Of a DNA stretch of 64,000 nucleotides, positions 1-17,606 are shown piece by piece. Position 1 is the first letter of the stretch, and every line of letters starts with the position of its first letter. The notes under the pieces were generated by a model that was not told where the DNA came from, did not search any database, and saw only the letters and a program-made list of their open reading frames with translations. Both the position numbers and the translations under genes were made by a program. Origin of the DNA: Candidatus Rokuibacteriota bacterium (GTDB taxonomy: Bacteria; Methylomirabilota; Methylomirabilia; Rokubacteriales; CSP1-6); NCBI GenBank assembly GCA_016866775.1, contig VGLJ01000006.1:50315-114314 (forward strand), given 5' to 3'.

Positions 1-134
1 GCAGCGCCGCCTCGATCCCGCTGAGCCCGTCCGCCGCCTCGACCAGCGTATAGCCGCGGGCGTCAGCACCGAACGCACGAGCATCCGGTTACCCGGGTTG
101 TCTTCGATGGAGAGGATCTTCGGCCGCGGCGCCG

Positions 135-138
<4 letters not shown>
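1..138 (-). CDS. Response regulator receiver (REC) domain, N-terminal fragment running off the window edge. Its ATG overlaps the upstream kinase TGA (ATGA). There is an apparent 1-nt indel near pos 60-70.
   Basis: Minus-strand translation from ATG at 138-136 gives MTAPRPKILSIEDNPGNRMLVRSVL. It then shifts frame into DARGYTLVEAADGLSGIEAAL, a classic REC N-terminus. The ORF is under 60 aa so it is absent from the ORF track. Confidence 0.5.
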
Positions 139-2275
<2,137 letters not shown>

Positions 2276-2958: not shown

Positions 2959-3642
2959 TTATTGGACGAACCAGAGGTCGAAGCGAACGGCGGGGAAGCC
3001 GATCGCGTACTCGTTCGCATTCACCGCAACAGGGTTCAGCAGATCGAGCGTGCCGTTCGCGAGGCCGAGGTAACAGGCCGTGGTGGCCGAGCACCCGAAC
3101 GGCAGCCGGAAGACGCCGACGAAGCGCGGCGGATTCTCCTCGTCCTCACCCGGCGTGCGCACGCGGCCGGTGATCGTCCCATAGGGGATCTGATGGAAGA
3201 TCGCGGGCACGAAGTCCATCCGTCCGCTCGCCCGGCGCCTGCCGATCACGGCCTCGGGTGAATCGACGGCCCCCCCGGGCTCCTGGACGACGATCGTCAG
3301 CTTCGCGTCGAACGTCCCCAGGCCGGTCACGAGGCTGATGTCGTCCTCGCCCAGCGCGTTGAGCGTGCACGGTTTCGCGCTTCCGACCGCGGCGGTGACT
3401 TCGGCCGCGGGACAGAACGCGTTGCCGGGGTTCGCGAAGCCGATGAGCGCGGACTGCGCGACCCGGCGCGGCCGGCCCTTGCCGATCACGCGCATGTTCT
3501 CGGGGGTCTCGTAGAACGTGGCGTCCGGCGGCCCGTTCGGAAACGTCGGCAGCGGCGGAATGGTCTGGGCGAACACGGGAGCGGCGCTGGCGACAATGCC
3601 AAGTAGCGCCGCCGTCAATGCGAGCGTGCGAATCGGCGTCAT
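2959..3642 (-). CDS. Small secreted protein of unknown function (signal peptide, 6 Cys), last gene of the methyltransferase operon
   Basis: MTPIRTLALTAALLGIVASAAPVFAQ signal peptide. 227 aa. It is the C-terminal segment of composite ORF 2959..4995. Its ATG overlaps the MT2 TGA (tcATGAcg). Confidence 0.6.
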   Translation of the reverse strand: MTPIRTLALTAALLGIVASAAPVFAQTIPPLPTFPNGPPDATFYETPENMRVIGKGRPRRVAQSALIGFANPGNAFCPAAEVTAAVGSAKPCTLNALGEDDISLVTGLGTFDAKLTIVVQEPGGAVDSPEAVIGRRRASGRMDFVPAIFHQIPYGTITGRVRTPGEDEENPPRFVGVFRLPFGCSATTACYLGLANGTLDLLNPVAVNANEYAIGFPAVRFDLWFVQ

Positions 3643-11822: not shown

Positions 11823-12089
<267 letters not shown>

Positions 12090-15342: not shown

Positions 15343-15351
15343 GACATCCTA

Positions 15352-15379
15352 CAGAGAGGTTCAACTAGAGAGGTTCAAC
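15352..15379 (+). repeat. Perfect tandem direct repeat agagaggttcaac x2 (1-nt spacer) just upstream of the selenoprotein operon. Putative operator or regulator-binding site.
   Basis: acAGAGAGGTTCAACtAGAGAGGTTCAACgacGGGAGGacgagATG. It is a locally AT-rich island in a 70% GC genome. Confidence 0.6.
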
Positions 15380-15393
15380 GACGGGAGGACGAG

Positions 15394-15636
15394 ATGGCCG
15401 GACAGGTGACGGTCTACACGAACATCGGCTGAGGGCCCTGCCACCGCGCGGTAGAGTATCTATCGCAAAAAGGTGTGGCGTTCACCGAGAAGAACGTCGG
15501 GCGCGATCCGCAGGCGCGGCAGGAGCTGATGGAGCTCGGGCTGCTCTCGCTGCCGGTGCTGCTCATCGGCGACCAGAAGCTCACGGGCTTCAATCCCGCC
15601 AAGATCGACGAAGCGCTGGGGAGCCTCAATGGCTGA
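15394..15636 (+). CDS. Glutaredoxin-like thiol-disulfide oxidoreductase with in-frame UGA (putative selenocysteine) in a U-G-P-C redox motif. Not present in the ORF track.
   Basis: GGGAGGA RBS, ATG at 15394, TGA at 15430-15432. The readthrough product is MAGQVTVYTNIG-U-GPCHRAVEYLSQKGVAFTEKNVGRDPQARQELMELGLLSLPVLLIGDQKLTGFNPAKIDEALGSLNG. That is a Grx/NrdH-like fold with U replacing the first Cys of CxxC. The stop at 15634 overlaps the next gene's start. Confidence 0.7.
15448..15466 (+). promoter_or_regulatory. Candidate bacterial SECIS hairpin, 16 nt downstream of the UGA
   Basis: GCGGUA-GAGUAUC-UAUCGC is a 6-bp stem (one G-U pair) with a 7-nt loop containing GU. An alternative palindrome CCGCGCGG is adjacent. 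Confidence 0.35.
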
Positions 15637-16042
15637 AGGGGCACCGTTGCAGGCGAACATCGACAAGATGTGGAAGTACGCCGAGAAGTACGCGGAGAAG
15701 TCCGGCACGTCGCTCCATCCCGACCGCGGCGTCACGGAAGCGGTCGTGAACGGGCTCGCGCGCCACATCGAGCTGGTCGGCCGCCCGCTCTGTCCCTGCA
15801 ACTTCTACCCGGACCCCGCGGCGGAGGCGAAGAACCGCCGCTGGATCTGCGCCTGTGACGAGATGCAGAAGTGGAAGTACTGCCACTGCCTCCTGTTCGT
15901 GACGCCGGAAGGAGTTCCGATCACCGAGTACCTGCCCGAGGACCACGAGGGCCGGCAAGCCTACGGGGTCGTGAAGGACCCCCATCCCGACAAGGGCCGC
16001 GCCGTCGGCAAGATCCTCGAGAAGCGCGAGACGGAAGGCTGA
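15629..16042 (+). CDS. Ferredoxin:thioredoxin reductase catalytic subunit homologue (FtrC-like ferredoxin:disulfide reductase)
   Basis: The CPCNFYPD...CACDEMQKWKYCHCLLFVTPEG arrangement matches the FTR catalytic CPC...CHC 4Fe-4S/redox-disulfide signature. 137 aa. Confidence 0.8.
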   Translation: MAEGAPLQANIDKMWKYAEKYAEKSGTSLHPDRGVTEAVVNGLARHIELVGRPLCPCNFYPDPAAEAKNRRWICACDEMQKWKYCHCLLFVTPEGVPITEYLPEDHEGRQAYGVVKDPHPDKGRAVGKILEKRETEG

Positions 16043-17088
16043 GCGCCGCGGGCGACGAGGGGCGCGCGCACGCGCCCGATCCTGCAGCCCTGATCGAGAC
16101 GTACTTCGAGCGCGGCTGGACCGACGGCCTGCCCGTCGTTCCGCCGACCGAGACGTCCATCGCCGCCATGCTCGCCGGGGGCGGCCTGCGCGGCGACGAA
16201 GTCTTCGGCGAGATTCCCGGGCGCAACACCGTGGTGGTCGCCGACAAGGTGGCGATCAACGCCGTGCTCGCCGGCTGCCGGCCCGACTACTTTCCCGTCG
16301 TCGTCGCCGCGGTGAAAGCGCTCTGTCATCCCGACTTCGCGTATCACGGCCCCGCGTCCAGCACCGGCGGCTCCGCCATCGTCCTCGTCGTCAACGGTCC
16401 GATCCGCCACCGCGTCGGTCTCAACGCCGGCAACAACCTCTTCGGCCAGGGCACGCGCGCGAACGCCACCATCGGCCGTGCCGTGCGGCTGACGATGATG
16501 AACGTGATGCAGACGCGGCCCGGCTTCTTCGATCGCGCGACGCTCGGCAATCCCGGCAAGTACTCGTTCTGCTTCGCGGAGAACGAGGAGGAGTCGCCGT
16601 GGCCGCCCCTCCACGTCGAGCGTGGCTGTCGTCCCGAAGAGAGCGCGGTCACGGTCTACGCGTCGAACAGCCTCTACCAGGTCTACAACCAGCTCGCCGC
16701 GACGCCGGAGCCGCTGCTCCGGTGCTTCGCCGACGCGCTGTCGAACCTCGGGCTGCCGAACGTGAAGGGCTTCAACCAGGCCCTGCTCGTCTTCGCGGGC
16801 GAGCACAGCGAGGTGCTCGCGAAGAGCGGCTGGTCGCGGCGCGAGGTCGCCGCGTTCCTCATCGAGCACGCGCGCCGGCCGCTCGCCGACTTCAAGCGCG
16901 CCACGCGCCTGCCGGGCGAGCCGACCGCCTCCGACGAGACGACGGTGCGCGCGCTCTTCGAGCGCCCCGAGGATGTCCTGATCGTGTCGGCGGGAGGCCG
17001 CGCCGGGAGCTGGTCCGCGTGTCTTCCCGGCTGGGGCAACAAGTGGACGAAGGCCGTGACCGCGGTCATCGAGGAGGGCAGCGCATGA
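16039..17088 (+). CDS. Conserved hypothetical protein of about 350 aa in the selenoprotein operon. The start codon is unresolved.
   Basis: Conserved-looking sequence ETYFERGWTDGLPVVPPTETSIAAML...VVVADKVAINAVLAGCRPDYFPVVVAAVKAL. There is no in-frame ATG or GTG between the FtrC stop and that region. It ends in an ATGA overlap with the UGSC gene. It is part of ORF 15871..17088. Confidence 0.5.
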   Translation: MSAAGDEGRAHAPDPAALIETYFERGWTDGLPVVPPTETSIAAMLAGGGLRGDEVFGEIPGRNTVVVADKVAINAVLAGCRPDYFPVVVAAVKALCHPDFAYHGPASSTGGSAIVLVVNGPIRHRVGLNAGNNLFGQGTRANATIGRAVRLTMMNVMQTRPGFFDRATLGNPGKYSFCFAENEEESPWPPLHVERGCRPEESAVTVYASNSLYQVYNQLAATPEPLLRCFADALSNLGLPNVKGFNQALLVFAGEHSEVLAKSGWSRREVAAFLIEHARRPLADFKRATRLPGEPTASDETTVRALFERPEDVLIVSAGGRAGSWSACLPGWGNKWTKAVTAVIEEGSA

Positions 17089-17606
17089 CCAAGATCTTCG
17101 ACCCCACCGCCGCGCCCGTCGCGCGCGCCGTCGCGCTCGCCGCGCGCCCGGTCGAGCTCCGCGGCCTGCGCCTCGGCCTCGTCGAGAACACCAAGTTCAA
17201 CTCGGACACGCTGCTGCTGAAGCTCGCCGACCGACTCCGCGAGCGGCACGGCATCACGATGACGCACATGGCGCGCAAGCGCTCGCCGAGCCACGAAGTG
17301 GACGAGCGCGCGATCGCCGCGCTCAAGGAGCGGAGCGACGTCGTCGTCTCGGGCATCGGCGACTGAGGGTCCTGCTCGTCGAGCAGTGTGCTCGACGCGA
17401 TCCTGCTGGAGCAGCACGGCGTGCCCGCCGTGGCGATCGTGACCGACGTCTTTCGCGCGACCGGCGAGACGATGGCGATGAGCTGGGGCCTGGCGGGCTA
17501 CCCGTTCCTCGACACGCCGCATCCCATCGCCAACCTCCGCGACAAGGATCTCGACGCGCGCGCCGACCGGCTCGTCGAGCCGGTCGTGGCGTTGCTGACG
17601 CGTTAG
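17085..17606 (+). CDS. UGSC-family (seleno)protein: in-frame UGA giving the motif GIGD-U-GSC. Split into two ORFs in the track.
   Basis: ATG at 17085 (ATGA overlap). TGA at 17364-17366 is in frame with the downstream ORF 17388..17606. The joined product is ...ERSDVVVSGIGD-U-GSCSSSSVLDAILLEQHGVPAVAIVTDVFRATGETMAMSWGLAGYPFLDTPH...LLTR, about 173 aa. Confidence 0.7.
17372..17394 (+). promoter_or_regulatory. Candidate SECIS hairpins 6-17 nt after the second UGA
   Basis: CUGCU-CGUCG-AGCAG and the overlapping CGAGC-AGUGU-GCUCG both have GU in the loop. Confidence 0.35.

Follow-up and report, generated by a model that had tools for sequence, protein, structure and literature searches.

What is one to make of a gene that appears to stop after its twelfth codon? 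The question is raised by positions 15394 to 15636 (forward strand) of a 64,000-nucleotide stretch of DNA from a Candidatus Rokuibacteriota genome (contig VGLJ01000006.1), hereafter the window, where a frame of 80 codons carries TGA as its 13th. Our answer, taken as a whole, has a probability that we put at about 0.88: the locus is the gene of a selenoprotein redoxin, in which this UGA would be read as selenocysteine (Sec), and the protein is probably re-reduced by the product of the downstream gene, a homologue of the catalytic subunit of ferredoxin:thioredoxin reductase (FTRc). That we are dealing with a genuine Sec-encoding gene of the glutaredoxin (Grx) kind is, in our judgement, very probable indeed.

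A Shine-Dalgarno site, GGGAGGA (15383-15389, forward strand, as are all the features of the window described below), lies 4 nt ahead of ATG 15394. The frame then runs through codon 13, TGA (15430-15432), and 67 further sense codons (GPCHRAVEYLSQKGVAFTEKN...). It ends with the stop codon 15634-15636, within ATGGCTGA, where it overlaps ATG 15629 of the FTRc gene, the two genes sharing 8 nt. Read through, the product is MAGQVTVYTNIG-U-GPC-HRAVEYL..., with Sec as residue 13, at the catalytic position of a U-G-P-C motif, and with a putative resolving cysteine, Cys16, encoded at 15439-15441; this cysteine is kept in 73 of 73 distinct sequences, where both TGC and TGT are used for it. An earlier note on this DNA, made from its letters, had described the ribosome-binding site, the frame and the overlapping stop just as they stand. 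It had also remarked that the gene escapes a six-frame listing, each of its halves being shorter than 60 residues; indeed, since the mechanical list of open reading frames (ORFs) holds at this place a GTG ORF of 53 amino acids (15475-15636) and nothing else, the gene goes unseen at a 60-residue cut-off.

The nature of the product emerges when the frame is read across the TGA. With U written as C, residues 5-61 score 52.8 bits in the Pfam model PF00462 (Glutaredoxin), whose cut-off is 22.9 (E 4.6e-14). Among solved structures the nearest is PDB 7C10 (E 5e-16; 45% identity over 76 residues, without a gap), followed by structures of NrdH. 7C10 is glutaredoxin-1 of Clostridium oremlandii, a native selenoprotein with a U(C)PXC motif, crystallized with Cys13 in place of its catalytic Sec and having Cys16 as its resolving residue (PMC7642778). 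Residue 13 of the window's protein, the one specified by UGA, aligns to this Cys13, natively Sec13, and residue 16 to Cys16: Sec falls on Sec. Curated NCBIfam models give a less sharply defined picture. The top match is the YruB family, TIGR02196, aligned over its full length (73.3 bits, cut-off 88.55). The NrdH models score 54.5 bits against 85.75 for TIGR02194, again at full length, and 41.5 against 131 for NF007657, while the UXX-star selenoprotein models remain further away (NF041212, 39.6 bits for a cut-off of 66; NF041114, 17.3 for 72; NF041211, 26.4 for 100; NF047338, 28.4 for 97). YruB and NrdH are the best curated relatives, from which the redoxin differs by its scores and by Sec in the place of cysteine. 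The NrdH active site is CVQC, where the redoxin has UGPC, and the TGFNP segment of the redoxin may correspond to SGFRP, a signature of NrdH; no ribonucleotide reductase gene is annotated near the redoxin gene. To judge from its sequence, the product is a small redoxin of predicted thioredoxin fold, of the glutaredoxin/YruB/NrdH type and homologous to C. oremlandii Grx1. The earlier note had called it Grx/NrdH-like, which we retain with the refinement that the YruB/NrdH-like match lies below the trusted cut-off.

Its best studied counterpart, cGrx1 of Clostridium (Alkaliphilus) oremlandii OhILAs (PDB 7C10, 7C12 and 7C13, in the Sec-to-Cys form), has the same small glutaredoxin fold and the same U13-x-x-C16 arrangement. 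It differs in the active-site dipeptide, P-H rather than G-P, and it comes from a different phylum. Furthermore, cGrx1 is described as working with glutathione and with MsrA, itself a selenoprotein (PMC7642778), whereas the redoxin of the window is operon-linked to an iron-sulfur reductase of the FTRc type. More generally, UxxC glutaredoxins are an established family of prokaryotic selenoproteins, according to PMC1088965, PMC2398784 and a table in PMC13188914, a 2026 review of the prokaryotic selenoproteome. The Grx and Grx-like UxxC families of marine metagenomes (Sargasso Sea, GOS), as described there, likewise belong to PF00462, have Sec for the first cysteine, and possess a stem-loop whose small apical loop contains a G; the likeness is one of descriptions.

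Is the TGA a peculiarity of this contig? A protein search retrieved 357 relatives, most of them fragments of 53-62 amino acids starting after the TGA (among them P0007-P0120); a few are complete proteins, in which the site is occupied by C, W, S or G. Retrieval at the DNA level, comprising 19 loci from species-representative genomes and 80 from metagenomes, yielded 94 loci with the motif, and TGA occupies the corresponding codon in every one of them. Most are labelled Methylomirabilota or Rokuibacteriota; to these are added one Candidatus Acidoferrum metagenome-assembled genome (MAG), Rubrobacter marinus (where the motif is U-G-S-C) and an unclassified MAG. A further locus, from Candidatus Entotheonellaceae, has TGA at the same codon. 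Homologues from Firmicutes (L019, L020, L022) display a CxxC motif, the first cysteine of which stands at the UGA position. The reading of a missed selenoprotein, with Sec exactly at the N-terminal cysteine of CxxC, was already that of the earlier note, which had proposed to look among homologues for an alignment of cysteine with Sec and for conservation beyond the UGA; both were found, and conservation extends to the two sides of the codon.

A hairpin of the type of selenocysteine insertion sequences (SECIS) is present at 15448-15466. Its 5' arm, GCGGUAGA (15448-15455), pairs with UCUAUCGC (15459-15466) in a stem of 8 bp closed by a GUA triloop (15456-15458). It begins at the 16th nucleotide after the UGA, and 23 nt separate the UGA from the loop. 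On its own, the hairpin folds with -8.6 kcal/mol, while the minimum free energy (MFE) fold of the 61 nt from 15430 to 15490 reaches -23.6 kcal/mol (z = -2.18 against shuffles). The earlier note had put a candidate hairpin at this very start, and the element is indeed there, but not with the 6-bp stem and 7-nt loop that were drawn for it. According to PMC13188914, the model of the bacterial SECIS (bSECIS) comprises an apical loop of 3-9 nt with G in one of its first two positions, commonly followed by G or U, a stem of 4-16 bp, a distance of 16-37 nt between UGA and loop, and an MFE of at most -7.5 kcal/mol. With its 3-nt loop, 8 bp, 23 nt and -8.6 kcal/mol, the hairpin of the redoxin gene falls within the model on all four counts.

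Comparison between relatives shows that this structure is maintained. The stem is paired at 99.8% across 61 distinct sequences, where registers slid along the alignment pair at 19-51%. In the same sequences the pair 29-39 alternates between CG (31), UA (29) and AU (1), another pair goes once from CG to AU, and two more alternate A-U with G-U, resulting in a covariation score that none of 500 column shuffles attained. The main compensatory change couples a replacement of GUA (Val) by ACA (Thr) with a synonymous change of CUA to CUG (Leu) on the opposite arm. The entropy of third codon positions is 0.41 inside the hairpin and about 1.0 in its flanks, and the codons that make up the hairpin are rare in the genome (GTA accounts for 1.5% of the codons for Val, CTA for 0.7% of those for Leu and TAT for 12% of those for Tyr). 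Tyrosine provides an internal control: in the loop it is encoded by TAT in 70 of 70 sequences, and five codons before the UGA by TAC in 69 of 72. In the cysteine forms from Firmicutes, the homologous 19 nt are unfolded (0 to -0.3 kcal/mol). All this suggests that the hairpin behaves as a SECIS element, and we infer from it, together with the conserved codon, that Sec is inserted at the UGA.

The gene next to the redoxin gene (15629-16042) encodes the FTRc homologue, a protein of 137 residues. It matches PF02943 with 84.5 bits (cut-off 22) and the structures of plant and cyanobacterial FTRc (PDB 7BZK, 2PVG and 1DJ7) with E values around 1e-24. Cysteines 55, 57, 74, 76, 85 and 87, as well as His86 (cyanobacterial numbering), are all in place, the CPC, CAC and CHC motifs being in register with 7BZK and 2PVG. 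The set of cysteines, CPC...CxC...CHC, and His86 are those of the plant and cyanobacterial enzyme. The differences are a second motif that is CAC instead of CPC, a C-terminal extension of 40 residues, a presumed substrate that would be a Sec-glutaredoxin and not thioredoxin, and the variable subunit, for which no gene is annotated within 10 kb. Nor is the protein the double selenoprotein FtrB of model NF041072 (42.6 bits against 160): its active-site positions are all cysteines in 87 loci. Of the 90 loci that have enough flanking sequence, 87 show an FTRc gene, recognized by its cysteine motif, directly after that of Sec-Grx. In the Entotheonellaceae locus (L113) the two genes adjoin in convergent orientation, FTRc at 52-477 (+) and Sec-Grx at 754-524 (-); the latter, called as a fragment of 43 residues, reads VG-U-GPCHQAMEYL and has the same hairpin.

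A precedent for such a pair is FDR of Methanosarcina, a relative of FTRc which likewise stands alone, with no variable subunit, is paired with a small redoxin of NrdH-like or thioredoxin type and is reported to reduce a thioredoxin-type protein (PMC6262447). The pair of the window differs from it in that the partner would be a selenoprotein, presenting a selenenylsulfide and not a disulfide, in its bacterial host, in the lack of a ribonucleotide reductase gene nearby, and in being known from its genes alone. FDR is said to deliver electrons to a class III ribonucleotide reductase.

How might the system work? Translation would begin at ATG 15394 and, at the UGA (15430), a factor of the SelB type bound to the hairpin at 15448-15466 would deliver Sec-tRNA, making residue 13 the selenocysteine of the U-G-P-C active site. 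Sec13 would then attack disulfides or sulfenates of a substrate, and Cys16 would resolve the intermediate, leaving an intramolecular selenenylsulfide. Electrons from ferredoxin would pass to the [4Fe-4S]/disulfide centre of FTRc, which would re-reduce the Sec13-Cys16 bond, and the redoxin so reduced would in turn reduce its target proteins. A gene for a 4Fe-4S ferredoxin of 88 residues is located 3.3 kb upstream of the redoxin gene, at 11823-12089 (according to Fer4-type Pfam hits in the annotation of an identical contig, L001), and its product may be considered as a candidate donor. The direction of this electron flow, the ferredoxin as its source and the physiological targets at its end are what we infer from the arrangement, and that the FTRc homologue is the reductase of the Sec-glutaredoxin seems to us somewhat more likely than not.

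To be sure, several observations weigh against this reading. Among the curated glutaredoxin families of NCBIfam there is none whose trusted cut-off the redoxin reaches. In the hairpin, upper-stem covariation rests mainly on one pair, in sequences that are mutually related, and an extended lower stem, in which the UGA region pairs with 15478-15484 in the MFE fold, had to be abandoned (87.6% paired, no convincing covariation). No SECIS family of Rfam is matched, be it by the whole window at the gathering threshold or by 15350-15650 at E values up to 10, the sole hit, ASpks, being a chance match; bacterial SECIS elements are diverse, and for this reason the null result is uninformative. Within the 64 kb of the window there is no selA, selB, selD or tRNA-Sec gene. 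Finally, the association with FTRc is not obligatory: three Sec-Grx loci (L016, L021 and L023) have no FTRc, and in Chloroflexota/Dehalococcoidia (L111, L112) an FTRc 71-72% identical to that of the window has no Grx-like gene within 2 kb.

This last point feeds the rival explanation that fares best, in which the selenoprotein redoxin is real while FTRc is not its reductase: both might serve a common third partner, electrons might flow in reverse, or the redoxin might be reduced by thioredoxin reductase or a low-molecular-weight thiol. Sec-Grx genes without FTRc lie beside purE/purK in Rubrobacter and beside GrdA in locus L016, FTRc proteins more than 70% identical exist with no adjacent Grx in Chloroflexota, and Grx1 of C. 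oremlandii is described as being reduced by glutathione and as serving MsrA (PMC7642778). We nevertheless find this unlikely, for the very reasons that make FTRc the likely reductase: the 8-nt overlap of the genes, their adjacency in 87 of 90 loci that diverged deeply, its persistence in the convergent orientation of L113, the intact active-site residues of FTRc and the precedent of FDR acting on thioredoxin-type proteins (PMC6262447).

A quite different objection concerns the genetic code. Could the UGA be read without Sec-tRNA, through near-cognate readthrough by Trp or Cys or in a locally reassigned code, to give a full-length protein devoid of selenium? Four database entries (P0003, P0004, P0005 and P0009) do have Trp in place of Sec (the DNA was examined for P0003 alone, where the codon is TGA), and Sec machinery was not located in the window, which is also free of tRNA genes; what the identical contig's annotation reveals, as do Pfam searches with another 20 ORFs, is ordinary housekeeping genes (fatty-acid synthesis, cytochrome c maturation, cytochrome oxidase, ABC transporters, glutamine synthetase) and no Sec machinery. 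However, the code is not reassigned, since TGA is the commonest stop codon of the window, terminating 35 of its 54 predicted genes. The UGA stands opposite a catalytic Cys or Sec, where Trp would destroy function, it is followed by a conserved hairpin conforming to the bSECIS model, and a second gene with an in-frame UGA, from an established selenoprotein family, occupies the same operon. These facts leave selenium-free readthrough very improbable.

This second gene, of the UGSC family, extends from 17085 to 17606. Its in-frame TGA (17364-17366) stands in the context ...SGIGD-U-GSC..., and public annotation splits the gene there into two adjacent fragments. Read through, it matches NF041046 with 136.8 bits (cut-off 125). 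Its TGA is followed by a hairpin, CGUCGAGCA-GUG-UGCUCGACG (17377-17397, with the GUG loop at 17386-17388), kept in six loci. That this gene, too, has an in-frame TGA and a conserved hairpin is strong indirect evidence that the organism decodes Sec, to which are added the GrdA homologue beside a paralogous redoxin in locus L016 and the review PMC13188914, which describes the phylum Methylomirabilota as rich in selenoproteins, one MAG being predicted to have 63. Both hairpins of the operon end in A-[GUR]-U, with their loops 23-27 nt from the UGA, which is consistent with recognition by one and the same SelB. Two scans of the window for in-frame TGA, based on G+C content at third codon positions (GC3), produced no selenoprotein gene beyond these two; two candidates, 36646(-) and 34436(-), seem to be boundaries between genes or sequence that does not code.

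Still less probable is that the UGA is a true stop, ending a peptide of 12 residues that would perhaps be followed by a C-terminal fragment of 53-67 residues made from an internal start. Such a view can invoke the hundreds of database entries that are fragments of 53-62 residues starting after the UGA. The internal starts chosen by gene callers, however, differ from one lineage to another (GTG at VAFTEKN, ATG at MEYL), neither being common to all homologues, and the fragment would be deprived of the first beta strand and of the active site. By contrast, the distinct upstream regions inspected nearly all offer a GGAGG-type site, then ATG or GTG 11-12 codons before the TGA. The 8 codons preceding the TGA are conserved as protein, with the peptide (V/I)T(V/I)YTN(I/V)G and variation mostly in third positions (column entropy of 0.42, 0.12 and 0.67 at codon positions 1, 2 and 3 in 73 distinct sequences); this coding-type pattern is found upstream as well as downstream of the TGA, and GPCHRAxEYLSQKG, between the UGA and the internal starts, is conserved as protein too. 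Translation of the selenoprotein gene is, by all these marks in the sequence, predicted to begin upstream of the TGA.

Two loci depart from the rule. On a forest-soil contig in ENA (L106, 57-299; protein entry P0001), TGC (Cys) stands at the Sec codon while the next 35 nt, hairpin included, are identical to those of the window, as though Sec had been changed to Cys very recently, leaving behind a fossil SECIS. On JGI contig Ga0491454_0087776 (L114, 301-546), the codon is GGA (Gly) and the hairpin is kept; the allele could be inactive, the protein could be a monothiol form, or the assembly could be in error. The notion that the glycine at the Sec site of entry P0006 came from translation with code 25 was dropped, the DNA having a real GGA codon. 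That the TGA of the window itself reflects a pseudogene or a misread TGC (the latter raised by the earlier note), as these two codons, each one base away from TGA, might suggest, is effectively refuted by 94 independent assemblies, obtained from soils, lakes and groundwater, that all have TGA, by six contigs from separate Lake Tanganyika samples that encode an identical downstream segment of 53 residues, and by purifying selection on both sides of the codon.

Some relatives of the redoxin live in other company. In a Rokuibacteriota MAG from groundwater (L016, 758-1344), a paralogous Sec-redoxin with U-V-P-C comes directly after a homologue of GrdA, the selenoprotein A of glycine reductase, and no FTRc is present; the GrdA ORF lacks its N-terminus, as expected of a gene with a Sec codon of its own, and genes for an IclR regulator and a TRAP-type binding protein come next after the redoxin. 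This arrangement suggests that the redoxin can also serve a system of the glycine-reductase type. In Rubrobacter marinus (L021, about 3001-3216 of NZ_CP045121), the motif PG-U-GSC is encoded upstream of purE/purK, and in the unclassified MAG (L023) PG-U-TGC is encoded after an RNase T/WYL gene, in both cases with no FTRc neighbour. Both have compensated versions of the redoxin hairpin.

The leader of the redoxin gene has features of its own. The 51 nt between the stop codon of a CoA-transferase gene and the redoxin start contain AGAGAGGTTCAAC twice in tandem, at 15355-15367 and 15369-15381, 1 nt apart; this direct repeat is unusually A+T-rich for the genome (the window has 70% G+C) and was not seen in the other loci inspected. 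In many loci a bipartite, promoter-like motif, GAATC-N17-[GC][AG]TC[CT][CT]A, is found 25-55 nt ahead of the redoxin start codon, its boxes constant and its spacers variable. Of 65 distinct upstream regions, 11 have the whole motif, where shuffles lead one to expect 0.015, and 25 have the second box alone, where 3.6 are expected, these sequences being related, which makes such counts overstate their independence. The window has the second box only (CATCCTA, 15345-15351). The motif resembles promoters of the ECF-sigma type. Neither a sigma-70 promoter nor an intrinsic terminator came to light between 15000 and 18200.

With FTRc and the UGSC gene, the redoxin gene belongs in the window to an operon of four genes, the third of which encodes a protein of about 349 residues that we call X (16039-17088). 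Public calls start X at ATG 16168 (306 residues). Its homologues have 336-351 residues and begin some 30 residues upstream of that point. The start of X is probably CTG 16039, which overlaps the FTRc stop (CTGA); at the same place a GTG overlaps the FTRc stop in locus L018, and another relative has CTGA. A Candidatus Rokubacteria MAG has supplied NCBI with an entry identical to X, which has at least 7999 homologues, and nothing in Pfam, NCBIfam or the PDB matches its sequence. An AlphaFold model (pTM 0.83) retrieved with Foldseek only weak matches in the PDB, those to fumarate hydratase of class I having a TM of about 0.3. For the UGSC protein, no solved relative was found.

X and UGSC overlap in ATGA, where UGSC starts, at 17085. 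The same two-gene cassette recurs on other Methylomirabilota contigs (L107, 4001-5541; L108, 536-2076; L109 and L110, 4001-5574) with the 4-nt overlap and with UGSC once more called in two parts, divided at its TGA; there it is remote from Grx-FTRc and lies near genes for molybdopterin oxidoreductases of the aldehyde/xanthine dehydrogenase type. X-UGSC is absent from most Grx-FTRc loci, including that of the cysteine variant, L106, where FTRc is directly followed by a LeuA-like gene. Occurring as it does in unrelated neighbourhoods, and lacking in most Grx-FTRc loci, the module looks therefore as if it had been inserted behind Grx-FTRc in the clade of the window. X is possibly a functional partner of the UGSC family.

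What does this locus add to our knowledge? The redoxin belongs to a kind of selenoprotein known since 2005, of which one member has been structurally characterized, and no concept is changed by it. The available portions of PMC1088965, PMC2398784 and PMC13188914 contain no description of a UGPC subfamily in Methylomirabilota or of its pairing with FTRc. The subfamily, its near-universal pairing and the four-gene operon with UGSC were not found described in the literature searched either (Haft & Tolstoy 2025 and Deng et al. 2026 lying outside its scope). What results is the correction of the annotation of a widespread and systematically truncated gene family, not a new principle: the subfamily is mis-annotated throughout public data, with hundreds of fragments, some entries showing Trp at the Sec site, and no NCBIfam model scoring above its cut-off. 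Beyond this correction, the pairing of Grx with FTRc creates a testable hypothesis, that of an iron-sulfur disulfide reductase servicing a selenoprotein redoxin in abundant uncultured bacteria of soils and lakes. Translational coupling to X-UGSC, in turn, supplies a lead on UGSC, which is among the commonest selenoprotein families of aquatic metagenomes and has no known function. One may even imagine, quite tentatively, that Grx-FTRc forms, within the ferredoxin/thioredoxin system, a dedicated branch that depends on selenium, with the selenoprotein as the cognate substrate of a [4Fe-4S] reductase that acts on its selenenylsulfide, widespread in Methylomirabilota of soil and freshwater and in Entotheonellaceae, and fused with X-UGSC in the clade of the window. 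If this were true, it would give the UGSC family its first functional context.

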